This document shows, one piece after another, positions 2 through 35,991 of a DNA stretch of 64,000 nucleotides (positions are counted from its first letter, which is position 1; every line of letters begins with the position of its first letter). The notes below the pieces were generated by a model that saw only the letters and a program-made list of their open reading frames with translations, searched no databases and had not been told where the DNA came from. The position numbers were made by a program, and so were the translations under genes. The DNA is from a virus. The stretch lies in IMG/VR virus record IMGVR_UViG_3300025660_000003, positions 77,697-141,696 of that record, one strand, 5' to 3'.

Positions 2-3000
2 GGCACGAACGCGACGGTGAAGCGCACCGACATGATCTTCCTGGAGGTCTGGCGGGCGCTGGTGGCCCCCTCGCCCTTCGCCACAGGTGCGATCCAGGTC
101 AATGACAACGGGTCGGTGGCCCCAGGCGACTGGTTCCGCATCAATGGCATCTCCCTAACGGCGACGGCGGGTGTGCCTGCTCTCAACCAGTTCACCATCG
201 GGGCCACGGCCGACATCACAGCCGCGAACATCGCCGCCGCGCTCAACCTGGCCGCCAACTCGTTCGACACCATCCTCACGGCCAGAGCGACGACCAACGT
301 GGTCCTCCTGACTGCTGACCTGCCTGGTGCTGGCGATGTCATCAGCCAGACGGGCAACTTCATCACCTTGCTGGTCCTGGTGGCTACCCCGGGCTCGATG
401 GTCATTTCGGGAGCCACGCTGGTCGGTGGTGCTGACCGTCCGAACAAGCCGGAGAGCGAGCAGGACAAGATTTTCCGGCACGGCAACGTGCTGTCCCCGA
501 GTCCCGTGTGGCTCGATGACGAGCTGGTCGATCCCATCATCGCGGTCGAGAGCAGCCAGCGCATCCAGCTCCACTACCGCATCCGCACGACGAGCGATGC
601 GGAGGCCCTCAACTACAAGAAGCACCCGGACGGCTTCTCGAACCTCATCGCAGGTGGTGGCCCGAACGACGCGGCCATCTTCGCGCAGGGCAACCGCAGC
701 GTCCCGGTGTGGGCTGGCAACGGCGTGGACACCGTGTCCTACCCCTTCGTCCCCGCCGACAAGACGAAGACCTGGCTCCAGTCGTCCGCCGTGGCCTACG
801 GCTGGGAAGACGACGGCCTGTACGTCGCGGGCGACGGGTCGGCTACCGCAGCAGCGAACCTCGGAGCCCTCGACGGCTTCGTGTTCGCCATCCCCATCGC
901 CTTCGTCCACCGGCACAACAACGTCAGCGACATGCTGGCGGGCTTCAAGGGCTTCGACCCGGAGAGCAACGCCAACGGTGCCCCGAAGTACGGTCACACC
1001 GGCTACGTCGGCCCGCTGGGCAACATCCCGGCAGGTGACTCCGACCGCCCGGACGGCGAGTTCTGCAACGTCATCACGACCAACAACCTGCTGGACCTCC
1101 GCAGGCACGTCATCTTCCCCGGTGTGGATCTCGCGTCGGAGCTGAAGTATCAGGTCCAGAGCCTCATGGACGGCACCTTGCGGAGCTGGTCGGTGGACAC
1201 CGCCAGCAAGCAGACCCTCGGTGGTGACTCCGGGGATGTCTCGACCCGCTACCTCATCTGCAACGAGGTCGGCCGCACGGAGTCCGAAGGTGCGACGCCC
1301 CCTCTGGCGGGCGAGAACACGGAGCGGGGCGAGCTGATCCGCAGCTACGACCACATCTGCCGAAGGTTCGCTGACCAGCCGGTCATCGAGCGGGTGCTCA
1401 TCGCCTTCTGGCCGGGCGACCGCAATGGGGTCCCCGTGCTGCCCGGTACGGACAATCCCGGCAAGTACATCGTCAAGGACCCAGCAGACGCGGCCACCTG
1501 GTACGAGGGCGACGTGCTCAACCTCGATCTGGAGTTCCTGAACTCCACGACGCTCGGTGGTCTGTTCGACTCGCGGCCGGGTGCCGGGCTCAACGTGGGC
1601 TCCGGCACGGGCATCCCGGATCAGAACTTCCTCCAGTTCGCTCCGGCGGGCACGGTCATCACCGATGTCCTGAACGCCTGGCACGACGACGGCCACTACA
1701 ACCAGGTGACCAACCAGAACGTGCAGCTCGGCATCGTCAAGGGCCTGGGCACGACGCACCTCGAAGTCACCCTGGATGCCAACGACACGCTGACGACAGA
1801 GGGGCAGCCCATCGGTGTCGAGCACAAGATGGTCGGTTCCGGGGCGCTGGCCGGAGCTGAGACTTTCGGCTCTCCGAGGCGCATCTTCTTGGAGGTCGAG
1901 ATCACCTACCCCATCGGGGTGGGTACGACCGACACGCCCGACCACGAGATCACCCCGGACACCGATGTCTACACGGACAGCGTCCTGACGGTCACTGGCC
2001 CCGGTCCGCTCATCGAGAACGACGTGCTCCAGCGGCCTGCTGACTTCGAGAACCTCCTGGCAGCTCGCTACCGCAGCGGCTTCCGCGAGGTGCAGACGGA
2101 GTACGTGGCGAACGACACCATCAACATCGCGGCTCCCCTGGCAGGTACGGCCATCGGGGTCGCGACGGTCGAGCAGATCGTCTCGACCGACCGGAACACC
2201 CTCCGGTTCCCCCGCCGGGTCTACGGCGACAAGGTGGCAACGGGCCTGTACGTCAACGACGTGCCTGGTGGGGTCGTTCAGACGGTGAACCCGACCACCT
2301 CAGAGTTCGGCTCTTCCAGCCGCATCGTGGAGCTGGCCGGGGGCGGGGGCATTCCCCTCTCTGGGGTGGGCCACACGCTCTGCGACATCCGGTACTTCGC
2401 TCAGGACCCGATCCCGAACTACGGGGTCAACGGTGGCGGCTACCAGGTGGCCTACTACTTCCGATCGAACTCGCCCCAGACGGCGGGGACGAAGGAGGGC
2501 GACATCACCTCGACGGGCGACGGCACCTTGCCGACGAGCCTGCTGGTGGAAGCTCTGCTCGTCAGCCCGAGCATCTGGACCGGCCAGGTCGGGATGGGTG
2601 GTCACGAACTGGCCTTCCCTTACGAATCCCCCCTGGACCAGATCCCCATCAACGACGGGACGCTGGTTCCGGCGGGCTCGCAGCAGATCAGCGGGACGAC
2701 GGAGGAGTGGTACTTCGCAGCGACCGCAGAGGTGGCACTCGACCACTTCGATGCGGACACCGGGCTGCTCAACCTGCACGCCTTCGTCCAGATGGATGTC
2801 CAGGACGACTTGAGCTTCGGCGGGTCGGACAACGAGCACAAGCCTCGGAAGGACGCGGAGTTCCGGGCCTACTACCCGTTCGCGGACGACGAATCCTACC
2901 GGCCGACGCTCTTCGCGCAGCCGCTCTTCGGGGCGACGCGGCACAAGTCGTTCACCCCGTTCCTGGCGAGGGCCGTGGAAGACGTGCCCGGAGTCGCTGG

Positions 3001-3181
3001 TGGTCTGCTGTTCCGCAAGTCGGAGCTGCTGCTCATCGTGCTCTCCCGGTTCGCGGAGCTGGACGATGACAACAACGTGCGGTTCATCGACCCGCAGAGC
3101 AGCAACAGGACGCTGGCGGCGGTCTACCGCACCCGCAACCTTCTTCTGACCGTGGGAGATCGCACATGCCTCGGATCGTAA
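2..3181 (+). CDS. Large virion structural protein (baseplate/tail-associated), 5'-truncated; paralog of 13359..19043
   Basis: Frame open from the window edge. Shares ordered motifs with the 1894-aa protein (FLEVW, GNV, RxQxxYRIR, HPDGF, LGxxDGxxxAIPI, RPDG, LDLRR). G/T/D/N-rich composition. Confidence 0.7.
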   Translation, partial: GTNATVKRTDMIFLEVWRALVAPSPFATGAIQVNDNGSVAPGDWFRINGISLTATAGVPALNQFTIGATADITAANIAAALNLAANSFDTILTARATTNVVLLTADLPGAGDVISQTGNFITLLVLVATPGSMVISGATLVGGADRPNKPESEQDKIFRHGNVLSPSPVWLDDELVDPIIAVESSQRIQLHYRIRTTSDAEALNYKKHPDGFSNLIAGGGPNDAAIFAQGNRSVPVWAGNGVDTVSYPFVPADKTKTWLQSSAVAYGWEDDGLYVAGDGSATAAANLGALDGFVFAIPIAFVHRHNNVSDMLAGFKGFDPESNANGAPKYGHTGYVGPLGNIPAGDSDRPDGEFCNVITTNNLLDLRRHVIFPGVDLASELKYQVQSLMDGTLRSWSVDTASKQTLGGDSGDVSTRYLICNEVGRTESEGATPPLAGENTERGELIRSYDHICRRFADQPVIERVLIAFWPGDRNGVPVLPGTDNPGKYIVKDPADAATWYEGDVLNLDLEFLNSTTLGGLFDSRPGAGLNVGSGTGIPDQNFLQFAPAGTVITDVLNAWHDDGHYNQVTNQNVQLGIVKGLGTTHLEVTLDANDTLTTEGQPIGVEHKMVGSGALAGAETFGSPRRIFLEVEITYPIGVGTTDTPDHEITPDTDVYTDSVLTVTGPGPLIENDVLQRPADFENLLAARYRSGFREVQTEYVANDTINIAAPLAGTAIGVATVEQIVSTDRNTLRFPRRVYGDKVATGLYVNDVPGGVVQTVNPTTSEFGSSSRIVELAGGGGIPLSGVGHTLCDIRYFAQDPIPNYGVNGGGYQVAYYFRSNSPQTAGTKEGDITSTGDGTLPTSLLVEALLVSPSIWTGQVGMGGHELAFPYESPLDQIPINDGTLVPAGSQQISGTTEEWYFAATAEVALDHFDADTGLLNLHAFVQMDVQDDLSFGGSDNEHKPRKDAEFRAYYPFADDESYRPTLFAQPLFGATRHKSFTPFLARAVEDVPGVAGGLLFRKSELLLIVLSRFAELDDDNNVRFIDPQSSNRTLAAVYRTRNLLLTVGDRTCLGS

Positions 3182-6100
3182 ATCCCGGCACCCTGACGAC
3201 AGGGCACGGCAAGGCGGCTCCTGACGAGATCGCCAAGCGCCCAGAGCTGACCGGGGTGGCTGGCCCTGTGCCGAACATCGGGGAGATCGAACAGACGATC
3301 CCCTCGCTGCCTGGCCAGCTCGCCGTCCAGTCGGTCATCGCCCACATCGACGACCCCAAGGAGGCCCACACCGCCTCTGCCATCGAGCACGACGGTCACC
3401 CGGACATCCTGTGGTCCAGCAACGTCGAGGGAGCCCTGGACGAGCTGATCGGCACGGTGCTGAAGCGTCCGCCCATGCTCGGCGAGTGGTCGCCGGACAC
3501 GACCTTCTCGGGCATCGCGGACTGGGGCTTCCTCAAGCTCCGTGATGGTGGTCTGGAGAACTACACGGGCTCTGGCCTCACGTTCACCGACGCCACGGTG
3601 CAGAACGACGCGAACGTCTACCCCTACTTGCAGACCTTGACGGGACCGCCACGGGACACTGAGTTCGCCGTCCCGATGACCGACCCCCGGACCGACCACC
3701 TGTTCAACTGGGGCATGGAGTCGCTCGGTGAGCCCGGCATGGGCTACGGCCGGACTCACATCGGGGCCTACACCCGGACCGGCCACATCGCCGTCCCGAA
3801 TGCGGCCATCTTCCGCACTGCACGGCTCATTGCCCGTCCGGCAGCGGAGGCTGCGGGCACGGGACGCAACGAGCGTGTTCCGGTGACCATCTCCGGCACC
3901 ATCTTCCCGGCAGACCGGGGGGTGCTGGCCCTCATCCACTTCGTCGTGCCTCGCGGCGAAGACCCATCGGACGTGCCGATCTCGTTCCTGGCACAGCCGC
4001 TCGTCACCGATGAGACCAATTTCATGGCCACTCAGGGACGGGTGGTCGCGGCCATCCTCCTGGGCAACGGCATCATCGGCGACAAGTGCCAGGGGGTAGA
4101 CCCCTGTGACGATGCCCACCTCTGCGACGGCGACCCCGGCGGCATCTTCGGCCCCGGTGTGGATGCGAGTGGCAACTACGACCCCTTCCAGTTCCCCGGC
4201 AGGGCGAGCGGCCAGTACGACCTGCTGGAGCTGCACCTGGGCGTCAACTCCGATGGCGACGCCCTCAAGACTCCGTGGGACGACCTCGACGGTGACACGG
4301 TGGCAGGAGCGCAGCGGACGCCCACGGCGGTCATCCCGGCTCCCGGCCAGGTCCGCCTCGGCACCGACCCCGACGCAGCTCCCCTGCTCGCGGTGGTCCC
4401 GAACGGCATCCCCATCCTCGGTGGCACGGTGGACTGTTTCACGGTCCCGCCCATCGCACAGGTGGGCAGCCTGACCCTCCCGATCCACGGGGATGCCATC
4501 GTCCGATCCTCGAACTTCTTCCGCTACCGCCTGCCGGTACTGAAGGACTACTCGCCTGCGACCGGGTTGAAGTGGACTCCCAGAGGCGAACTTCCGACAT
4601 CCACCTTCGAGACGAGCAGGTTCTTCGACGTGGCGGCCCCCTCGTCAGCCACCTACGAGGACGGCACGGTTGTAGGCGCGAGCCTGCGGTCGGCAGGGGT
4701 CTACGACGACTTCGACGAGGACTACTGGGTCTGGCAGATCGCCCGCTACCGGCAGACGTTCCTGATGCCATCCCTCGCGCTCAAAGACACACGCGAAGAG
4801 GCGGGCACCTACATGCTCGTCCACTTCAAGCGGGAGACCGACTTCGAGTCCTTCGTGCGTGACGCCAGCTTCCCGTGGGACACACCGGCCCCCTACGAGG
4901 TCTACGGAGCGTCCATCGTGGATCGCCCAGAGTCGGTGGACAACCTGGCGAACGACTGGCCCGCAGCGACGGTCCCGGTGGCCCCGGACGGTCCGGCTCC
5001 GGCCTACGGCTACGCCGCGAACCCGTGGCACAACATCCGCAACCGCATCTACCTGGACCCCCTGGGCGCGGCCGTCCCAGCCCCAACCTCATCGGCCCTC
5101 ACGTGGACATCCGCATCAGCTCCGGGTGGGGCGACGGAAGAGGTCATCTGGGTGTCGGGCATCGCCTACTTCACCCCCCGTGACATCGCGACCGGGGCGT
5201 CCAGCGTCACGCTCACCGCCTGCGACATCGACCTGCCAGCGGGCTTCTGGACTTCGTACCGCACGGACTACGCCGACCTGGAGACATGGCCGACCACCGG
5301 CCCGGCTGTCGTGGCTTCGCAGAACCCGGCGATGGTGGCACTCGCTCAGTGGGGCTACGGCCCCGCTCCCGGTGGCCTGCCGCTGAGTTCCCTGACCGTC
5401 CCGGTGGGCGTTTCCCCCGGCGGCTTCATCCCGGCGACGACGTACCAGGAGCAGTTCCGAATCGAAATCCCGTTCACGCACTTGGGCACCGCTGGCGCTG
5501 GCCCGTTCAGCGACATCAATGCACCGCTGGAGATCGACCCGGCATTCTTCACCCTCACCGGAACCATCGTCCTGCTGGGCGATGACACGGACCCGTCCTT
5601 CTCCAGCAACGCGGTCGCGCGGGTTCACTTCCGCCGCCCGCTCAACCACACAGCCGTCGCCTCTGTGAACCTGCCGTACACGGCGGTAGACGGTCACGGG
5701 CAGCTCTTGACCCACACGACCCCCGGCCCGGTGCTGCTGCACACGACCCGGTGGTCCGCTGCGACCCTGGTGGGCGACTACGGCAACTTCCTGGTAGGCG
5801 GCCTAGGTGCGGTGGGGTTCAACACGGCCGCCAAGGACTACACAGAGAGGTTCCTGGACGAGGGCCACCGCTACGTCGCCCTTGCTCCAGGGGGCCTCAT
5901 CGGTCACGGCCCCTACACCGCAGCCACCCTCGTAGCTCTCGACGGCCCCGGCATGGGCGGCTGGGCCGGTGGCCCGGTGGAGACCCCGGTGCGGATCTCG
6001 CTGGCAGCAGCAGTAGATCAGTGGGATGCCTCATCGTGGCTGCTGCAAGGACACAACCTCCTCGACCTGTCCGGTCCGACCCCGAGCCACGACGCTCTCC

Positions 6101-29388: not shown

Positions 29389-30941
29389 AGTCCCTACTGC
29401 GGTCCCTGTTCATCGGTGACGCTGGCGACAACGGGCAACTGCTTCTGAACAACTACCAGTTGTTCAACGGGTCGGGGCTTGGGTTCGACGTGCCCGAGTA
29501 CAACGCGATCTGGAAGTACATCCAGGAGTTCGTGCGGACGCACAACCACGTCCCGGCCATCCTGACCATCCGGTCGCACTTCGAGTACAGCAAAGAGGAC
29601 AGCGTCCTCGACCAGCTCAAGGCCCTGGAGGGGCTGAAGGCCCGAACGAAGGGTGACTTCCAGGGCGTCCTCGAAGACAGGGCGAACGACCGCCGCCAGC
29701 GGTTGTGGTCGGAGGCTCTCAAGGAGGCGTCGATCATCACCTCGACCGGCATGGAAGTGCAGGAGGGCCGGGAGAAGAAGCTGCTCATCGGGCCGGTGAT
29801 GTCGGCCCGGTACCTGATGGACAAGGCCCACGACGTAGTGGCTCCGACCATCGGTGGTCGGCTCTCCGGCGAGGTGACCAAGGACGGGGTGGCGGTCAGG
29901 GAGGAGTACGAGCGGGTGGAGTCTGACCCGCTGGCAGGCATCGGGCAGTTCTCGTTCCTGAAGCAGATGGACGATGCCCTGGGTGGGGCGAAGCGGCATG
30001 AGCTGTGGATTCACGCGGCCTTCACGGGCGGCATGAAGTCCACCCTGATGCTGAACTGGGCCTACAACCAGGCCGTCCTGTACGGCCACAACGCCCTGAT
30101 CTTCTCGCTGGAGATGCCGTACAGCCAGTGCCGTCGCATCCTCTACGCCATCCACTCGATTCACCCGAAGTTCCGTGAGATTCGGATGCGGTTGGGGCTC
30201 CAGCAGGACTTGGAGTCGGACGTGGGGCTGGCGTACACGGAGATCCGTGACGGCAAGCTGAGTGGCCCGGCCAAGCGGTTCTACTTCGACTTCGTGATCC
30301 CGGACTTCAACGGGACCGACGTGGTCAAGCACCCGTACATGGACTGCGACTACGGGAAGATCCACATCGAGGTAGCCGATCCCGACAAGGACGACTTCAC
30401 GATGCACGATCTCCGGTCGATGGCCGAGATCATCTACTCCAAGGAACCGTTCTCGATGATCTTCGTGGACCACTGCGGGCTGATGAGCCCCCGGCGGCAC
30501 CGCAACAGCACCACCGAGAACTTGAACGAGGTCATCCGGGACCTCAAGAAGCTGGCCCTGGGGTTCAACCGGGGCATGGGCATCGCCGTCGTGGGCCTCT
30601 TCCAGATCAGCCGCGAGGGGTACAAGAGCGCCCTCAAGGCCAAGGAGAAGACGGGCAAGGCGGGCTACAACCTGACCCACCTGTCCTACGCCAACGAGGC
30701 AGAGCGGTCTGCCGACGTGGTGACGACGACGTGGCTCGACGACGACCTGAAGAACCAGAGCAGGGTGCAGTTGAACTGCCTCAAGTCGCGCGACCAGGCT
30801 CCGTTCGACCCCTTCATCGCGCGGGTAGAGTGGCCCTGTCGTCGCCTGTTCTCCTGCTTCGAGGTGGCACGGACCCCGGAGGAGAACGCCAAGATGGGGG
30901 CCGAGATCGACAAGGCAGGCAAGGAGCTGGACGACGACTGA
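29385..30941 (+). CDS. dnaB: DnaB-like (SF4) replicative helicase
   Basis: AFTGGMKST Walker A, FSLEM, IFVDH, QISR, ERSADVV, LKSRD. Confidence 0.85.
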   Translation: MKSLLRSLFIGDAGDNGQLLLNNYQLFNGSGLGFDVPEYNAIWKYIQEFVRTHNHVPAILTIRSHFEYSKEDSVLDQLKALEGLKARTKGDFQGVLEDRANDRRQRLWSEALKEASIITSTGMEVQEGREKKLLIGPVMSARYLMDKAHDVVAPTIGGRLSGEVTKDGVAVREEYERVESDPLAGIGQFSFLKQMDDALGGAKRHELWIHAAFTGGMKSTLMLNWAYNQAVLYGHNALIFSLEMPYSQCRRILYAIHSIHPKFREIRMRLGLQQDLESDVGLAYTEIRDGKLSGPAKRFYFDFVIPDFNGTDVVKHPYMDCDYGKIHIEVADPDKDDFTMHDLRSMAEIIYSKEPFSMIFVDHCGLMSPRRHRNSTTENLNEVIRDLKKLALGFNRGMGIAVVGLFQISREGYKSALKAKEKTGKAGYNLTHLSYANEAERSADVVTTTWLDDDLKNQSRVQLNCLKSRDQAPFDPFIARVEWPCRRLFSCFEVARTPEENAKMGAEIDKAGKELDDD

Positions 30942-32956
30942 TGCCGGCCCTGACCACCATCCACGTCGCCCGTAAGCCCCTCGACGGGACGGTGGCAGAG
31001 AACGCCATCAAGCACGGCACTGGCTCCCTCAACATCAAGGAGACCCGGGTCGGCTACCAAAACGAAGCGGACATGCGCCTGGAGACACGGGGGGTCCATG
31101 TCGGTGGTGCCTATGAACATCCAGAAGGCACTGCGTTCAAGAAGGAAGTCAACCGCGTAGCACCCCCTGATACGGGGGGCCGCTGGCCCGCCAACGTCAT
31201 CCTCCAGCACCTGGCCGGCTGTGAGCGGGTGGGTGAGCGGGAAGTGACCTCCGGCAACGGTGCCGACACCATGACCCCCACCACGCACGAGGGGCCGGCG
31301 AAGTTCGGATACAGCCCGGAGCGGCACCAGTTCAACTACGGCAAGGAGACGGTCGATCACTGGGACTGTGCAGACGGCTGCCCTGTGGCCGATGTCGATG
31401 AGCAGAGCGGGGTGTCGAAGGGGACTGGGGGCACTATCTCCGGGCAGACGGCTTTCGGACAGAACCTGGGCTGGAACCCCCACCAGAACCGACCCACACC
31501 TATCGTCCGGCAGAACGACGAAGGCGGGGCCTCTCGATTCTTCAAGCAGGTCACCACAGATGAGGATCTCGACATGCCGGCTTTGAGCACCGTCCACATG
31601 GCCAGGAAGCCCCTCGAAGGGACGGTGGCCGCCAACGCCCTGAAGTACGGCACCGGCTCCCTCAACATCGGGGCGACCCGCATCGGCAGCTCCGGGGGGA
31701 CCAAGCGAGTCGGACAGGCCACCACACCGACACCTCAGGGGTGGGCCAACATGGGCGGCCACGACATCGCATCGCTGCCTGATGGCCGCTGGCCGGCGAA
31801 CGTCATCCTCGAACACCTGCCTGACTGCCAGTGCGACGGGACACGGAAGGTGAAGGGCGTCAAGGGTGGGTTCACCCCCGGGAGCACGGGGGCCTTCGGC
31901 CACAACTCGACCTACGGCCTCGCAGAGGGGGTCGAGGGCGACCCTGCTGAGGGCACCGGGTACACCGACGCAGAGGGCAACGAGGAGATTGACCACTGGG
32001 TGTGTGCCCCTGGCTGCCCCATCGCTGACATCGACGAGCAGAGCGGGGTCACGGTCGCCAAGAAGTCCATGCGTGGAGTGGGCTACTCCGACAGCGATGT
32101 CTACGGTCAAGGTGACGGGGAGTTCGACACCGTTCGGGGGTTCGACGACCAGGGGGGAGCCTCCCGCTACTTCAAGCAGTCGCAGTACGACCTGATCGAG
32201 TACCTCCGGGCGATGATCTCGACCCCGACCCACCGGGCCTTCGTCATCGACATGGAGACCTACCCCCTCTGGCCCGGGGACCAGCTTCTCGCGAAGCCGG
32301 GCTCGGTGGTCGGCCTGGTGGTCCGGGGAGCCATCGAGCAGGAGCACGTTGACGAGTTCATGCGCCTCCTGCCTCCCGGCGGCCACGTCCTTCTCATCGC
32401 TCCCGACTCGCAGCCCACCGGACACACGGGGGCGATTCTTCTGGAAGATGGCGGCTTCGAGATCCGGGACGCCATCCTTGTCGTTCGAGGCCCGGGACGA
32501 GCGCACTACGTCGCGAAGGCCGGGCGAAGGGAGCGGGAGGCCGGCTGCGGGCACCTCAAGGGCAAGGCCGGGCACGAGGCCGTGGAGCGCAAGGAAGGCT
32601 CCGCTGGGGTGGACAACCCCAGGGCAGGAGCTGGGCGGACGGCAGAGCACGTCAAGAACTTCCATCCGACCGTCAAGCCCATCGCGGTGATGGAACGACT
32701 GCTCGCTGATGTCCCCGAGGGTGTGACGGTGCTCGACCCCTTCCTCGGCTCCGGGACGACGGGGATCGCCTGCTCGAAGACCGGACACAGCTTCATCGGC
32801 ATCGAGCGGGAGGCGGAGTACCTGGAGATCGCGGACGCCAGGGTGAGGCACTGGGACCGAGCCCACGTCGGCTGGCAGGGGGCGGACATCGAGTCGGACC
32901 ACAAGGTGCCGGAGGTCGAAGTGGAGCCGATGGACCTGATGGACCTCTTCGGATGA
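30941..32956 (+). CDS. DNA amino-methyltransferase C-terminal half (SAM-binding) with duplicated ~210-aa module; lacks DPPY
   Basis: ARKPLxGTVAxNA..GTGSLNI..GRWPANVIL..GASRxFKQ twice, then HPTVKP and VLDPFLGSGTTG. Confidence 0.85.
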   Translation: MPALTTIHVARKPLDGTVAENAIKHGTGSLNIKETRVGYQNEADMRLETRGVHVGGAYEHPEGTAFKKEVNRVAPPDTGGRWPANVILQHLAGCERVGEREVTSGNGADTMTPTTHEGPAKFGYSPERHQFNYGKETVDHWDCADGCPVADVDEQSGVSKGTGGTISGQTAFGQNLGWNPHQNRPTPIVRQNDEGGASRFFKQVTTDEDLDMPALSTVHMARKPLEGTVAANALKYGTGSLNIGATRIGSSGGTKRVGQATTPTPQGWANMGGHDIASLPDGRWPANVILEHLPDCQCDGTRKVKGVKGGFTPGSTGAFGHNSTYGLAEGVEGDPAEGTGYTDAEGNEEIDHWVCAPGCPIADIDEQSGVTVAKKSMRGVGYSDSDVYGQGDGEFDTVRGFDDQGGASRYFKQSQYDLIEYLRAMISTPTHRAFVIDMETYPLWPGDQLLAKPGSVVGLVVRGAIEQEHVDEFMRLLPPGGHVLLIAPDSQPTGHTGAILLEDGGFEIRDAILVVRGPGRAHYVAKAGRREREAGCGHLKGKAGHEAVERKEGSAGVDNPRAGAGRTAEHVKNFHPTVKPIAVMERLLADVPEGVTVLDPFLGSGTTGIACSKTGHSFIGIEREAEYLEIADARVRHWDRAHVGWQGADIESDHKVPEVEVEPMDLMDLFG

Positions 32957-32962
32957 CAAGGG

Positions 32963-33745
32963 TCAGCGACCCAGGGCCATTCTCACTGATTTCTCGGGGT
33001 CGGCTTTGAAGTCTATTTCCCACACTTCCACTACAGGGACACCTTGAGCAGCGAGGAACGCGAGCTTTCTTTTGTACCTGGAGGCGGTGCGCTTCTGCGA
33101 AGAGTATTTGGGGCCGTTGGGGTAAGCGCGGGGGTCGGCGTGCCAGAAGGTCCCGTTGAACTCCAGGGCGGTGTTGATGATGGGCAGGTAGTAGTCCACC
33201 ACAGCCGCGAATCGTCCGTGATCCCCCCTCATCCGATGCTGTGCCTGGTACGTGACGCCGAGCTGGTCGAGAATGGGGGCAACCTGCTGTTCCAGCTTGG
33301 ACACGCGAGGGATGCGGCCCTCGCTGATAGCTCTGGCGACGGACAAGGAGATTTTGGCCTTGGTCTCCTCTGTGTGGGCATAGCGGCCCTCGGCTTTCCT
33401 CCGGGTGTTTTGCCTGATCATCCGCAAACCCTGAGCTTGTCGGGTGGCCTCTGGGACGACATAGGGCTTGGTGACGACTCGCTGCACCAGCCCAGTCGAT
33501 CGGGCCTTGTAGGCGCAATCGGGGGAACACAGCAAGACATCGGTCTTCGACCTGGCCACCCGGGATGGCGGGCGGGTCACAGGAACTCCACAGACTCCAC
33601 ACGGTTCAGTAGATGAGGTGGACTTGTTGGAGGCCCGTAGCGAGTAAGAGCAGGTACGAGAGCAAGTCGTCTGCCGGCCATGTTTGAGGCGGGTAGGGTC
33701 GGCTTCGTAGGGCGTCCCGCAGACGGGACATCGACGTTTAACCAA
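32963..33745 (-). mobile_element. Free-standing Vsr/DUF559-like homing endonuclease with Cys repeats and NUMOD3-like motif (start uncertain)
   Basis: CPVCG..CSRTC, HTEETKAKIS, SKLEQ..VDYYL..LEFNGTFWH..VWE; inverted orientation; atypical codon usage. Confidence 0.75.
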
Positions 33746-33755
33746 GGAGCACCCC

Positions 33756-33884
33756 GTGGGTGAAGGAGAACACAGCCGTAGGGCGCAGGTGATCCGGCTC
33801 CGACTCGGAGATTGCATCAGGGTGCTTCGTCACCTCGATGCAGAGTCGGTTGATGCCGTGGTCACTGATCCGCCCTACGGTTGA
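33756..33884 (+). CDS. Methyltransferase extreme N-terminal fragment ending in the catalytic DPPYG (42 aa)
   Basis: AAGGAG RBS + GTG; reads ...LRLGDCIRVLRHLDAESVDAVVTDPPYG-TGA; not in the ORF track. Confidence 0.8.
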   Translation: MGEGEHSRRAQVIRLRLGDCIRVLRHLDAESVDAVVTDPPYG

Positions 33885-35641
33885 CCATACCTGGACTGGA
33901 GTTCATGGGGAAGGACTGGGACGCCCCCTGGAAGCTCGGGGCCGGGATGATGAAGCCTGGCATCGGCGACCGGGACATCCCCTGGCCTGCCTACGGAGCC
34001 CAGAAGTTCGGGGGCTCGAACCCCACCTGTCAGACCTGCGGCGGTCGGGCGAGGGGCAGCAACAGGTGTTCCTGCGAGGAGCCTGACTGGCACGTCAGCG
34101 GGAAGCCCCTGTCTGACGACGTGAACGACTCTGCCAGCCCGGTAGTTCAGCGACAGCGGTTCCAGGCCTGGTGCGTCCTCTGGCTGGTGGAGGTCTACCG
34201 GGTGCTCAAGCCTGGTGGGGTCATCAAGGTCTTCGGAGCGACCCGGATGTTCCACCGGATGGCGGCGGCGATGGAGGAGGCGGGGTTCTTCCTCCCGCCT
34301 GAGCACAGCCTGGAAGCCTGGATGTATGGGTGCCTGTCTGAGGACACTGAGGTATTGACCGAGGACGGGTGGGCTCCCTACCATAGAGCCACGGTTGGAA
34401 CGCTGGTGATGGGGTTCGACCCTGTGACGGAGCGGTTCATCCAGCAGCCTGTGGAGGAGACCTTTGAGTACCCCTACGACCGAGAGGCTTTCCGAATCCA
34501 CGGAGACGGAACTGACCAGATCGTTTCCGTCAAGCACCGCTGTCTCGTCGGGCGAGACGGTAAGTGGGAGGTCGTCGTCTCGGGCGACCTGGCGGAAACT
34601 GAGACAATGCCCTGCCTGCAAAGCGGAGTTCATTCCGAAGGCGTCGGGTCAGAAGGCATGTGGGCGCTCCTGCTCGAACCGGCTGCGGGTCTACAAGAAG
34701 AAGCCCTTGTCCGAGCGGAAGGGCCGGATGGTGGCCTGCTCGGTCTGCGGGACCGAGAAGTGGTACGCGGAGGCGTGGCTGCGGAAGGGCATCAAGCAGC
34801 CGACGTGTTCCAGGAGGTGCAACGGAGTGCATCGGGGGCAGGACTGGGCGAAGCACGGGCACAAGGGAGCGGAAGCCAGAACACCAGAGAGCTACCAGCG
34901 TGCCGCCCAGAAGATGACCGGCTCGAAGAACCCGGCATGGAAGGGCGGGGTGACGTACGTGTCCCACAGAGGGAACTACAAGCGGACCAAATGCGTCCGT
35001 TGTCCGCCGGAGTATCGGTCGATGGCTCGGTCGAACGGGTACGTCGCAGAGCACAGGCTCCTGGTGGCGAGGGAACTGGGCCGAATGTTGACGAGGACCG
35101 AAGTGGTTCATCATGTGAACCACGACTCTCAGGACAATCGGCTGGTGAACCTGATGCTGTTCGCCTCGAATCGGGATCACAAGCTGTTCGAGCACCACGG
35201 AGCACCAGCCCCGATCTGGTGCGGGTCAGCGCACGAGTCGAGCGTATCCACTACACCGGCACCGTCTGGTGCGTGAGGGTGCCTACCGGGGCTTTCGTGG
35301 TCCGCCGCAAGGGCATGGCATTCGTCACTGGCAACAGCGGCTTTCCGAAGTACCTCAACACCAGCAAGGCCATCGACAAGGCGGCTCGTGGGGTGCCACA
35401 AGGAGGACCCGACGAGACCAGCCCGAACCACGGCAAGTACAAGACACAGGCCACTGAGGGTTCCCGTGGGTCGGCTGATGTGGGTCAGGGGTACGGTGCC
35501 GGTCCAGGGGCCTTCATGCGTGAGGCCGGGACTCTGGTGGACCTCCCGTTGACGACGCCCGATGCAGAAAAGTTCGACGGATGGGCCACGGCTCTGAAAC
35601 CAGGGTGGGAGCCATTTCTGGTAGGAGTGAAAGCAGAATGA
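33881..35641 (+). CDS. Methyltransferase N-terminal/central portion containing an intein
   Basis: GLEFMGKDWD, YRVLKPGG, FGATRMFHRM, WMYG|SGFPK, GWATALKPGWEP; in the -1 frame relative to the DPPYG fragment. Confidence 0.85.
   Translation: MTIPGLEFMGKDWDAPWKLGAGMMKPGIGDRDIPWPAYGAQKFGGSNPTCQTCGGRARGSNRCSCEEPDWHVSGKPLSDDVNDSASPVVQRQRFQAWCVLWLVEVYRVLKPGGVIKVFGATRMFHRMAAAMEEAGFFLPPEHSLEAWMYGCLSEDTEVLTEDGWAPYHRATVGTLVMGFDPVTERFIQQPVEETFEYPYDREAFRIHGDGTDQIVSVKHRCLVGRDGKWEVVVSGDLAETETMPCLQSGVHSEGVGSEGMWALLLEPAAGLQEEALVRAEGPDGGLLGLRDREVVRGGVAAEGHQAADVFQEVQRSASGAGLGEARAQGSGSQNTRELPACRPEDDRLEEPGMEGRGDVRVPQRELQADQMRPLSAGVSVDGSVERVRRRAQAPGGEGTGPNVDEDRSGSSCEPRLSGQSAGEPDAVRLESGSQAVRAPRSTSPDLVRVSARVERIHYTGTVWCVRVPTGAFVVRRKGMAFVTGNSGFPKYLNTSKAIDKAARGVPQGGPDETSPNHGKYKTQATEGSRGSADVGQGYGAGPGAFMREAGTLVDLPLTTPDAEKFDGWATALKPGWEPFLVGVKAE
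34331..35335 (+). mobile_element. Intein (335 aa) at WMYG|SGFPK
   Basis: Begins CLSEDTEVLTEDGW, block B VSVKHRCLV, ends YTGTVWCVRVPTGAFVVRRKGMAFVTGN; +1 residue Ser. Confidence 0.9.
34464..35276 (+). CDS. HNH homing endonuclease overprinted in the +1 frame inside the intein
   Basis: CPACK..CGRSC, CSVCG..CSRRC, GSKNPAWKGG, YVAEHRL..VVHHVNHDSQDNRLVNL; GGAGG 6 nt upstream of the TTG. Confidence 0.85.
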   Translation: MSTPTTERLSESTETELTRSFPSSTAVSSGETVSGRSSSRATWRKLRQCPACKAEFIPKASGQKACGRSCSNRLRVYKKKPLSERKGRMVACSVCGTEKWYAEAWLRKGIKQPTCSRRCNGVHRGQDWAKHGHKGAEARTPESYQRAAQKMTGSKNPAWKGGVTYVSHRGNYKRTKCVRCPPEYRSMARSNGYVAEHRLLVARELGRMLTRTEVVHHVNHDSQDNRLVNLMLFASNRDHKLFEHHGAPAPIWCGSAHESSVSTTPAPSGA

Positions 35642-35991
35642 GCGACGAGAACAAGCCGAACGACATGGACCACCTCTGCCCTGGCATCGAGAAGACGGTC
35701 CACTGGCTCCAGAGCCACGGGTTCAAGACCACCGACTCCGGTGATGGGGTGAGCAACGAGGGGATGGAGTGCGCCATCGACTTCCCGAACGTCTTCATGG
35801 TCACGGAGCCCCAGCACCTCATCCCCGAGTGCAAGAGGCTGATGAAGGTGCTCGCCGAGAAGGGCATCCAGTGTGGGGGCATGACGATGGACGGGGCACC
35901 GAAGCCGCACATCGAGGGCTCCTACGACCCCTCGGACGGCAACGCCATCATCAGCCTGTTCTATGTGGACGACAAGAAGCTGTTCGGGTAG
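35638..35991 (+). CDS. Hypothetical protein (117 aa)
   Basis: ATGA overlap; GFKTTDSGDG motif. Confidence 0.6.
   Translation: MSDENKPNDMDHLCPGIEKTVHWLQSHGFKTTDSGDGVSNEGMECAIDFPNVFMVTEPQHLIPECKRLMKVLAEKGIQCGGMTMDGAPKPHIEGSYDPSDGNAIISLFYVDDKKLFG

Follow-up and report, generated by a model that had tools for sequence, protein, structure and literature searches.

How an intein acquires and keeps a homing endonuclease is an old question, and in most inteins the outcome alone is visible, a LAGLIDADG domain fused in-frame. The question is raised in another form by a locus in the window, i.e. the whole stretch of 64,000 nt of viral DNA that was analysed, in which a preliminary description had seen an intein in one reading frame and an HNH nuclease in the next: are these two genes, are both of them under selection, and how would they act together? 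In our best explanation, which we hold with good confidence, the locus is a selfish element of two genes, which occupy two reading frames of the same stretch of DNA. The general design is already published, as hidden HNH genes in 2025 and as out-of-frame intein endonucleases in preprints of 2025–2026. The present family shows splicing and mobility as two separate genes on the same bases.

Frame A is the frame of the host gene. ORF A (33881-35641, 586 aa) reads ..LEAWMYG/CLSEDTEVLT..IVSVKHRCLV..VWCVRVPTGAFVVRRKGMAFVTGN/SGFPKYL.., with slashes at the splice junctions, and the intein is therefore delimited to 34331-35335 (335 aa). The placement after WMYG, with splicing blocks in the host frame, had been proposed in the preliminary description and is borne out by this reading and by the invariant residues given below. 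The features of frame A are:

33881-34330, plus strand: N-extein, module for the N-terminal half of an N6/N4 DNA methylase (RVLKPGG .. EEAGF .. LEAWMYG)
34331-35335, plus strand: class-1 intein, Cys1 to Asn335, 335 aa, with Ser as the +1 residue
34331-34630, plus strand: N-terminal splicing (Hint) domain, intein residues 1-100, from AF2, Foldseek and frame-A wobble
34631-35215, plus strand: filler linker, intein residues ~101-295 (~195 residues), from pLDDT, entropy and stop depletion
35216-35335, plus strand: C-terminal splicing domain (..YTGTVWCVRVPTGAFVVRRKGMAFVTGN), the last 40 intein residues, from pLDDT 94-97 and entropy
35336-35641, plus strand: C-extein, SGFPKYLNTSKAIDKAA .. ALKPGWEPFLVGVKAE, with the stop just before the ARKP motif

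Ten residues are invariant in 40 relatives, namely C1, H69, R70, W313, C314, P318, G320, T333, G334 and N335. Among these are the block A nucleophile Cys1 (CLSEDTEV), His69 and Arg70 of block B (S-V-K-H) and the C-terminal end ..FVTGN/S, where Asn335 is followed by Ser as the +1 nucleophile. The penultimate block G residue is Gly334 and not His, as had been noticed from the sequence, and T-G-N turned out to be invariant across the family, Gly being present in all members including the canonical actinophage intein at the same site. The penultimate His is absent in a minority of active inteins, and its absence is not disqualifying. AF2 gave pLDDT values of 94-97 for the beta-rich residues 1-90 and of at least 94 for residues 300-335, and every top match in a Foldseek search with the intein model was to an intein or a Hint domain, with a probability of 1.00 (6zgq, for instance, at E 2.7e-6). 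The middle, previously described as ~200 disordered residues, comprises ~195 residues of low confidence (pLDDT 41-56), with secondary structure absent from residue 115 on. In the models, the ends of the intein thus fold as a Hint domain, and the residues between them are predicted to be unstructured filler, which is read through and is not selected as protein. Profile HMMs detect the intein poorly: the window gave no Pfam match, its relative L004 matched Intein_splicing at E 0.038, and NCBIfam rSAM_Rv_intein matched residues 1-98 of the window intein at E 0.038, below significance.

Frame B is offset by +1 from ORF A ((34464-33881) mod 3 = 1), and it holds an ORF whose 813 nt are all open in both frames, in line with the more than 800 nt first noted. 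Its features are:

34464-35276, plus strand: ORF B, homing-endonuclease candidate of 270 aa, with leader, two zinc ribbons, NPAWKGG and HNH_3
34608-34820, plus strand: two CxxC..C(S)xxC zinc ribbons, ORF B residues 49-119, with C49, C52, C115, S116 and C119 at least 90% conserved
34929-35198, plus strand: NPAWKGG and HNH catalytic core, ORF B residues 156-245, from invariant residues

The complete zinc-ribbon, NPAWKGG and HNH protein that the preliminary description had placed in the +1 frame is thus present. Pfam HNH_3 (PF13392) matched ORF B residues 197-233 with 29.8 bits at a gathering score of 24.8 (E 4.6e-7), so that the HMM search proposed for both frames recovered the nuclease in frame B and returned no significant intein profile in frame A. 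An alignment of 64 ORF B relatives with 35-52% identity contains 21 invariant columns, including N156, W159, K160, G161, G162, G192, Y193, H197, R198, H216, H217, N225, N236, H239, K240 and E243; the catalytic His and the Asn/His metal ligands (H197, H216, H217, N225, N236, H239) are all among them. AF2 models ORF B with a mean pLDDT of 82.4 and a confident stretch from residue 45 to 255. In the VIA structure search, the top match was I-HmuI (1u3e, Z 5.4), followed by I-PpoI (Z 3.9), with Z scores that are modest, and then by McrA, GVE2 HNH, Gme HNH and IscB HNH at Z 2.5-3.0, mixed with unrelated chains. I-HmuI, which is an HNH homing endonuclease from Bacillus phage SPO1, superimposes on the ORF B core with an rmsd of 3.8 over 73 residues; it differs in being intron-encoded and shares 12% identity, and ORF B adds two N-terminal zinc ribbons and NPAWKGG. 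Foldseek with the whole multi-domain ORF B model found no PDB match at E ≤0.001, and a PDB sequence-profile search with the 64 relatives returned chance-level zinc-finger matches only. The zinc ribbons are probably the DNA-binding part of ORF B. Zinc-ribbon-like modules were additionally observed in a neighbouring ORF for a Vsr-like endonuclease (BLASTP E 3e-5).

Both frames bear the marks of selection, each in its own segment. When the synonymous codons of the HNH core were shuffled in 20,000 trials and frame A was checked for stops, frame A of the window remained open in merely 0.235% of shuffles despite a GC content of 63%, with 0 stops observed and a mean of 4.9 expected, and the double openness is therefore beyond chance. 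For L001, L004 and L005, where 9-12 stops are expected, frame A was open in 0 of 20,000 shuffles, and stop avoidance in frame A reaches p < 1e-4 in AT-rich members. Two free-standing homologues (L048, L051) carry 20 and 31 stops in the frame equivalent to A. Codon-position entropies, given for positions 1/2/3, follow the same division. In frame-A numbering, they are 0.99/0.82/1.29 in the N-terminal splicing domain, where the wobble position is the most variable, and 0.60/0.42/1.63 in the C-terminal splicing domain; the filler between them gives 1.40/0.76/0.54, so that the variable position there is the frame-B wobble, and the HNH core counted in frame B gives 0.82/0.61/1.43. The selected frame consequently switches from intein to HNH and back to intein, with purifying selection acting on each frame in its own segment. 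With stop avoidance and a switch from A to B to A, the evidence for selection is unusually clean.

The arrangement is widespread. We fetched 121 related loci, 95 from phages and metagenomes (the metagenome part being the best 80 of more than 300 matches) and 26 from a genome collection, and scored their layout by tblastn of the N-intein, the HNH core and the C-intein against each locus. Roughly 95 of the 121 loci, which are phage, metagenome and prophage sequences, keep the layout (~81 of those from phages and metagenomes, 14 of those from the genome collection), with the intein blocks in one frame with 0 stops, the HNH in the +1 frame and 2-20 stops in the third frame. Their GC content ranges from 30 to 68%, and insertion site and +1 offset are common to all of them. 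Stops in the +1 frame or lost HNH residues in homologues, which the preliminary description had named as evidence against its reading, are thus not what these ~95 loci show, and an in-frame version of the HNH intein was found in none of the 121 fetched loci. When the locus was compared with 50,697 phage records by megablast, no match was obtained; by tblastn, the layout was recovered in a single uncultured giant phage, all other matches being distant HNH genes. The same HNH family also occurs hidden in an intein-free form, in the +1 frame of methylase loops (L045, L046, L056, L068, L082, L084, L114 and others), and in a quick tree, for which support is by SH-aLRT only, two free-standing HNH copies are nested inside the intein clade.

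From these observations we propose the following model. Frame A holds a class-1 mini-intein, which interrupts a phage N6/N4 DNA-methylase module at the conserved ..W.YG/SGFPKS.. motif. Ribosomes on the host gene would read straight across the middle of the intein, through ~195 stop-free filler residues, and the Hint halves would then fold together, excise the intein and join WMYG to SGFPK, a splicing activity that we infer from the conserved blocks. Frame B holds a complete gene of the free-standing type for a homing-endonuclease candidate, with two zinc ribbons, NPAWKGG and an I-HmuI-like HNH_3 site; its start (GGAGG, TTG 34464) is embedded in intein codons 41-46 and would be used by internal initiation on the same mRNA. 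In a co-infection, the predicted targets of the nuclease are methylase alleles that lack the intein, which it would cleave or nick close to the insertion site; with the intein-bearing copy as template for repair, both genes would spread as a pair. Homing of the nuclease at WMYG/SGFPK is a prediction that sequence comparison supports well, though indirectly: a single insertion site is common to all members, identity is higher in the HNH core (61%) than in the splicing domain (50%) and the exteins (50%), and the divergence of the element is uncorrelated with that of the exteins (r = 0.04), to which partial saturation could contribute.

The host of the element is a marine giant phage with a DNA-methylase gene fragment that carries the intein. 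The N-extein matches Pfam N6_N4_Mtase at E 1.6e-4, and in tblastn with the extein of Awesomesauce gp76, taken without its intein, residues 40-177 match 33893-34330 (E 1e-20) and residues 169-255 match 35306-35632. Upon removal of the intein, the exteins rejoin to the uninterrupted ..AWLYGSGFPKS.. / ..YGSGFPKS.. of the intein-less Mantra gp64. Upstream, one further feature has to be considered:

33789-33898, plus strand: DPPY-encoding methylase start in another frame, running into TGA 33882-33884, with a 14-nt insert before frame A

This raises the possibility that the element is a relic in this phage, i.e. that the methylase fragment is a pseudogene and that intein and HNH are no longer selected. 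In the window alone, DPPY is followed by a stop and a 14-nt insert, the motif being in frame in the 50 relatives with enough upstream sequence, and the window ORF ends before the ARKP-to-motif-I half. We nevertheless consider decay unlikely, since both ORFs retain every family-invariant residue and frame A is free of the stops expected by chance. The short N-half format is moreover intact in another giant phage (L089), which has two such ORFs and in which the short format ends ..EPVCVGYKRV*, and an identical sequence is found in seawater metagenomes of several studies. An independent 2019 seawater run yielded a 1519-nt contig that spans 33836-35354 and has neither a difference nor a gap, two other studies contributed pieces that are likewise identical to the window, and the out-of-frame DPPY start recurs in independent assemblies. 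Given these identical assemblies the locus is not an assembly artefact, and the compensating indel errors that could have placed the HNH in-frame are seen in none of them. An intein-less allele of the phage was found in none of the contigs of four runs, a result of little weight because contigs drop rare variants.

In the proposed two-gene element, ORF B needs a start of its own, for which the window offers a single candidate:

34453-34466, plus strand: ORF B translation-initiation region, GGAGG 34453-34457, 6-nt spacer, TTG 34464

The ribosome-binding motif and its spacing are those first pointed out in the preliminary description, and TTG 34464 is the sole ATG, GTG or TTG in the open part of frame B before the first zinc ribbon. 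Counted from Cys1, a start codon at +133 or +139 is present in 40 of 65 members, and the remaining 25 must use other upstream starts. ATG at +139 occurs in 29 of the 65 members at a background of 2.8% (~16-fold enriched), and SD-like 5-mers number 20 across the family at 5.3 expected (~4-fold). One alternative is that the HNH is reached by +1 ribosomal frameshifting from the intein frame, which would give a fusion of N-extein, N-intein and HNH ending at the frame-B stop. It would fit with frame B of the window being open from +97 onward, with the ~165 nt that ORF B shares with the folded N-terminal splicing domain before the zinc ribbons, and with the 25 of 65 relatives that have a start at neither +133 nor +139, and the authors of the ShiLan study also found the translation route unclear (PMC11855218). 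Against it, at least one ATG, GTG or TTG lies in open frame B before the first zinc ribbon in all full-data relatives except L100, which starts further downstream, in most loci the start is separated from Cys1 by frame-B stops, ATG at +139 and SD-like motifs are enriched, and the GGAGG of the window is ideally spaced. We regard frameshifting as improbable. A separate transcript for ORF B is not proposed, because the one sigma-70-like site within the window intein is weak (34355-34384, 9/12 matches) and the hexamer at that place shows no conservation among the relatives. A look for RNA runs containing the stretch found none. Judging from the start signals, internal initiation at TTG 34464, on the mRNA that also carries frame A, is the most likely route to the ORF B protein.

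Our model further requires that the intein splices. The insert could instead persist as a tolerated methylase loop of the ShiLan kind, with the HNH alone being active, and it should be noted that the same HNH family does hide in the +1 frame of intein-free methylase loops, that the penultimate His is absent and that profile HMMs barely see the intein. The chance of this is slim, as Cys1, the block-B His and T-G-N/S are invariant, the splicing segments vary at the frame-A wobble position across 40 relatives, AF2 models a confident Hint fold, and the site lies inside the conserved W.YG-SGFPKS motif and not in a variable loop. Of similarly low probability is a domesticated HNH, serving the phage as methylase partner, in packaging or in anti-defence. 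HNH proteins have several phage roles (PMC11855218, discussion), and the 61% core identity marks a highly conserved nuclease; however, its relatives lie almost exclusively in this one intein or, hidden, in genes of the same methylase family, both free-standing copies fall within the intein clade, element and extein divergence are uncorrelated, and zinc ribbons with an I-HmuI-like HNH_3 site are a homing-endonuclease architecture. A group I or II intron with an HNH ORF, or a sequencing frameshift, is highly improbable: phage group I introns often carry HNH genes, but an intron would not need the strongly stop-depleted frame A with conserved intein blocks at both ends, an Rfam search of the stretch gave no intron family at E ≤1 (and two chance-level small-RNA matches), and a sequencing frameshift disagrees with identical independent assemblies and with a +1 offset common to ~95 loci. 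Two programmed frameshifts yielding one in-frame HNH intein were rejected as well, since in that case frame A would be free to contain stops across the HNH.

In cluster F mycobacteriophages (Awesomesauce gp76, ShiLan gp65), the same methylase site is occupied by a canonical LAGLIDADG intein, reportedly described by Kelley et al. in mBio in 2016. The window intein shares with the Awesomesauce type the insertion point (..LYG/C....TGN/SGFPKS), homologous splicing blocks and the unusual T-G-N end. It differs from that type, which carries an in-frame LAGLIDADG-like domain (LAGLIDADG_3, E 0.0095), and overall identity between the two is 21%.

Other relatives of the design keep the nuclease out of frame. 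Arsenault et al. (Genes 2025, PMC11855218) found a hidden out-of-frame HNH in the ShiLan domain and the Pacc40 insertion of mycobacteriophage DNA methylases, so that the alternate-frame insertions in actinophage methylases mentioned in the preliminary description are real. The window has in common with the ShiLan type the host gene family, an HNH in another frame, a stop-free host frame and a disordered in-frame product, and relatives of the window HNH also lie intein-free and hidden near the same methylase site. In contrast, the ShiLan domain is without a splicing domain, is retained in the protein and sits at an EPxVVARKP site, whereas the window HNH lies inside a bona fide intein, whose splicing should take the filler out. 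Mantra gp64 shows the layout of the ShiLan type (L002, 1929-2618), whose HNH shares 31% identity with ORF B over part of its length. Through one nuclease lineage, the family of the window links the hidden HNH genes of methylases with the out-of-frame intein endonucleases, both described only recently.

Related as well are the non-canonical actinobacteriophage inteins of Gosselin, Arsenault and Gogarten (bioRxiv 10.1101/2025.01.02.630785), in which the endonuclease occupies a separate reading frame, and with which the first judgement of the arrangement as rare rather than certainly new agrees. As in the window, the host frame encodes the splicing domain, a same-strand nuclease ORF in another frame lies between the splicing blocks, and the in-frame middle is unstructured. 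Their endonucleases are of the endonuclease VII-like type in 'frame 3', in DNA polymerase, minor capsid, terminase and thymidylate synthase genes, unlike the zinc-ribbon HNH_3 in the +1 frame of a DNA methylase with a ~165-nt Hint overlap described here. These authors regard such architectures as rare to extremely rare and as possibly drifting in-frame, and interpret them as free-standing endonuclease genes that reside within inteins. With ~95 sampled members over a GC range of 30-68% and none in-frame among the fetched loci, we argue that the arrangement is stable, and not rare and transient as this 2025 preprint supposed. A more far-reaching reading, which we offer tentatively as possible but not as the probable one, is that of an old, abundant and stable dual-coded unit instead of a transitional stage, with the start built into intein codons and a stop-free shadow frame of the HNH that is portable between intein, methylase loop and free-standing form. 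If the free-standing copies do descend from intein-nested ancestors, as the quick tree has it, this would be the opposite of the usual view, in which a free endonuclease gene invades an intein.

Two further systems are comparable. In the fractured genes of Dassa et al. (NAR 2009, PMC2677866), split inteins reportedly have a free-standing endonuclease gene between their halves, which resembles the gene of free-standing type, probably translated separately, between the intein halves of the window; the host gene there is in two ORFs and splicing is in trans, whereas the intein frame of the window is open and splicing in cis is possible. A cyanobacterial dnaX intein (bioRxiv 10.64898/2026.09.14.751524) reportedly has an out-of-frame homing endonuclease as well, in a different host gene and in different organisms.

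For annotation, overlapping genes of this kind mean that gene callers will miss one of the two. A copy of the element is also carried by a cultured bacterium, Plastorhodobacter daqingensis CGMCC 1.12750 (L106), in which splicing, internal initiation and homing are testable.

In this study, we followed up a methylase locus in which an intein is read in the host frame and an HNH homing-endonuclease candidate in the +1 frame. The methylase of ORF A is broken after ..LEAWMYG by an insert which opens with CLSEDTEVLT, holds ..TDQIVSVKHRCLV.. and closes with ..VWCVRVPTGAFVVRRKGMAFVTGN, whereupon the host methylase reading picks up again at SGFPKYLNTSKAIDKAA.

33881-35641, + strand: ORF A (frame A), 586 aa, N6/N4 DNA methylase, N-terminal-half module
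34331-35335: intein in frame A, 335 aa from Cys1
34453-34457: GGAGG, followed by a 6-nt spacer and the TTG start of ORF B
34464-35276, +1 frame: ORF B (frame B), 270 aa, two CxxC..CSxxC zinc ribbons, NPAWKGG and an HNH motif

Splicing blocks in the host frame, a complete zinc-finger, NPAWKGG and HNH nuclease in the +1 frame and GGAGG 6 nt ahead of a TTG had all been proposed in the preliminary description, and all were found. A search against Pfam placed HNH_3 in frame B (29.8 bits against a gathering threshold of 24.8, E 4.6e-7), while ORF A returned a weak N6_N4_Mtase match and nothing else. In an AlphaFold2 model built from an alignment of 40 relatives, intein residues 1-90 and 300-335 form a beta-rich domain with pLDDT of at least 94, which Foldseek matches to solved inteins and Hint domains (AceL NrdHF, gp41-1, DnaE, DnaB, Hedgehog) at probability 1.00. 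Residues from about 101 to 295 reach pLDDT of only 41-56, with no secondary structure beyond residue 115, in line with the earlier reading of the intein middle as disordered shadow text. The ORF B model (64 relatives) has a mean pLDDT of 82.4, residues 45-255 being confident and 1-40 poor. Its top match in the whole PDB is the HNH homing endonuclease I-HmuI (Z 5.4) and the next is I-PpoI; McrA and further HNH nucleases score lower, interspersed with unrelated chains. Modest as they are, these Z scores agree with the Pfam result.

The parent IMG/VR record comprises 141,696 bp at a CheckV completeness of 27%, which makes it a piece of a very large phage. The stretch 33750-35700 is present in marine and seawater metagenomes of several studies. 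A 1519-nt contig from an independent 2019 run spans 33836-35354 with 0 differences and 0 gaps, and sequence pieces from two further studies are identical to the locus. These identical independent assemblies exclude compensating sequencing indels.

A tblastn search of cultured and uncultured phage records yielded an HNH protein 39% identical in LR756508.1 (locus L001), an uncultured 484-kb phage. A methylase ORF of this phage has an intein in the identical position, again with the HNH in +1, at a GC content of only 41%. By pattern scanning, 121 related loci were retrieved from viral, metagenome and genome collections; these were searched by tblastn with three queries (N-terminal intein part, HNH core, C-terminal intein part). 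The full layout, with both intein parts in one frame and the HNH +1 to it, is kept in about 81 of 95 phage and metagenome loci and in 14 of 26 genome-collection loci. These full-layout loci show 0 stops in the intein frame across the HNH and 2-20 in the third frame. By the same search, an in-frame HNH was found in none of the 121 loci, the metagenome share being the best 80 of 306 relatives. In the full-layout loci the insertion site is always W.YG|CLSEDTE ... TGN|SGFPKS, and the 65 distinct sequences range from 30 to 68% GC. One copy (L106) resides on a 355-kb contig of a cultured bacterium, Plastorhodobacter daqingensis CGMCC 1.12750. Nearly identical HNH cores were also seen in bins of different phyla (L108/L109, L119/L120, L102/L103), e.g. 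Pseudomonadota/Acidobacteriota and Bacteroidota/Woesearchaeota. This reflects either mis-binned phage contigs or recent spread, and hosts assigned on the basis of such bins are not to be relied on.

Stop avoidance was assessed by shuffling synonymous codons of the HNH core over 20,000 trials, keeping the protein and its own codon set. For the window, frame A stayed open in 0.235% of the shuffles, with 4.9 stops expected; for L001 and two further relatives, L004 and L005, it did so in 0 of 20,000, with 9-12 expected. The two free-standing homologues, L048 and L051 (GC 41-42%), serve as a natural control: their equivalent frame holds 20 and 31 stops, respectively. Variability by codon position was distributed as follows.

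Codon-position entropy among relatives (positions 1/2/3)
N-terminal splicing part, frame A: 0.99/0.82/1.29
Intein middle, frame A: 1.40/0.76/0.54
HNH core, frame B numbering: 0.82/0.61/1.43
C-terminal splicing part, frame A: 0.60/0.42/1.63

The intein middle varies most at frame A position 1, the wobble position of frame B, while in the ORF B leader, overlapping the N-terminal splicing domain, the frame-A wobble is the variable position. This pattern indicates that protein-level selection acts, along the element, on frame A, then on B and then on A again. Both frames are thus selected, each within its own segment, and the sole constraint on frame A in the intein middle is the absence of stops.

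Upstream of the zinc ribbons, open frame B offers no canonical start other than TTG 34464, whose spacing from GGAGG is ideal. Among the 65 distinct relatives, 40 have a start codon at +133 or +139 from Cys1; ATG stands at +139 in 29, compared to a background of 2.8% per frame-B codon (raw counts, relatedness ignored), and SD-like 5-mers upstream of the start were seen in 20 with 5.3 expected, again ignoring relatedness. Codons of the intein thus make up the start region (..EE.., and Tyr with a G after its codon). The remaining 25 relatives start elsewhere upstream, so this position is common and not universal. A search for a promoter inside the intein gave one weak promoter-like site in the window, which is not conserved in relatives. 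ORF B would therefore most plausibly be translated by initiation within the host mRNA; production by a +1 frameshift out of the intein frame we consider very unlikely. Splicing, ORF B translation and homing are all steps which we infer.

Over 1039 pairs of relatives, mean identity is 61% for the HNH core and 50% for both splicing domain and exteins. Extein divergence is uncorrelated with that of the HNH (r = 0.04) or the splicing domain (r = 0.00), and between HNH and splicing domain r is 0.37. This would fit an element moving among methylase alleles, to which saturation may contribute. At least 13 loci lack an intein and hide an HNH of the same lineage directly in the methylase, in its +1 frame. 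The site is 10-15 residues past SGFPKS, and in the methylase frame CxC ... CxxC flanks the insert, as though the two ends of the filler loop were held together by a zinc knuckle.

Loci with the HNH hidden in the methylase, without intein
L046, 1108-1641
L056, 946-1485
L068, L082, L084, L114, L116, L117, L119-L122 and L124
Free-standing full-length ORF B homologues, between unrelated small genes
L048, 2234-3049
L051, 1440-2240

In a quick tree, the intein-less loci form one clade (SH-aLRT 98), and the two free-standing copies fall within the intein-nested group (nodes 95-96). Both free-standing copies keep an N-terminal ..LN.LE...YPYWKVC stretch, resembling the frame-B text over the end of the N-terminal splicing domain in nested copies, e.g. 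L004. L005 carries a second HNH ORF of 206 aa (3892-4512, - strand), antisense and further downstream in the same 895-aa methylase ORF, whose frame stays open across it.

Out-of-frame HNH genes in this DNA-methylase family without intein are known from work on the ShiLan domain (PMC11855218). Mantra gp64 (L002 1030-3354) is of this type, with no intein around its HNH, which lies at 1929-2618 between duplicated EPVVVARKP and EPIVVARKP; its N-terminal part holds an in-frame LAGLIDADG-like segment (..YWLAGLIDGEGCF..) without visible intein blocks. In the giant phage L089, a free-standing ShiLan-type HNH gene (3588-4292; CxxC ribbons, NHPQWKGG, HNH) separates an N-half methylase ORF from the methylase gene that follows, and it starts in overlap with the stop of the intein-bearing ORF. 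Actinophage inteins with the endonuclease in another frame or on the opposite strand were described in 2025; those out of frame have an endonuclease VII-like nuclease in frame 3 and sit in other host genes. Such architectures were called rare to extremely rare, with the suggestion that they may shift in-frame (bioRxiv 10.1101/2025.01.02.630785). An out-of-frame endonuclease in a cyanobacterial dnaX intein is reported in a 2026 preprint (bioRxiv 10.64898/2026.09.14.751524). The design has been in the literature since 2025, and the window holds a clean, well-supported example; the initial interpretation is supported. In comparison to the 2025 inteins, it differs in nuclease family, frame offset and host gene, its HNH gene partly overlaps the folded splicing domain, and it belongs to a large, widespread and apparently stable family. 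At the same site, cluster F mycobacteriophages (Awesomesauce gp76) have a homologous intein whose LAGLIDADG-like domain is in frame, so one splicing scaffold has been paired with different nucleases.

The host methylase is in pieces and in permuted order (30731-32956 and 35581-35641). Its DPPY motif (33789-33881) lies outside frame A, DPPYG being followed by TGA at 33882-33884, and a 14-nt insert, also present in independent seawater assemblies, separates the DPPY part from ..LEFMGKDW of frame A (33789-33898); DPPY is in frame in 50 of 51 relatives with enough upstream sequence. ORF A ends in ..ALKPGWEPFLVGVKAE, immediately ahead of the ARKP-to-motif-I half, which matches upstream at 30920-32860, and the end of this N-half ORF reads EPFLVGVKAE (35581-35641). 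In the upstream ORF, ARKP..GGASRFFK occurs as two tandem modules, accompanied by an N-half-like segment lacking DPPY and by the HPTVKP..DPFLGSGTT end. The short N-half format is intact in L089, where two ORFs (1112-1705 and 1702-3612) end in EP..GYK, and both window ORFs retain every family-invariant residue. Between the methylase pieces, an ORF at 32963-33817 (- strand) contains a pair of CxxC..CSxxC zinc ribbons similar to the ORF B pair (BLASTP E 3e-5); by eye, its C-terminal region resembles a Vsr/DUF559-type nuclease, Pfam gives weak sub-threshold matches only (NUMOD3, E 0.029), and it looks like a second homing-endonuclease gene.
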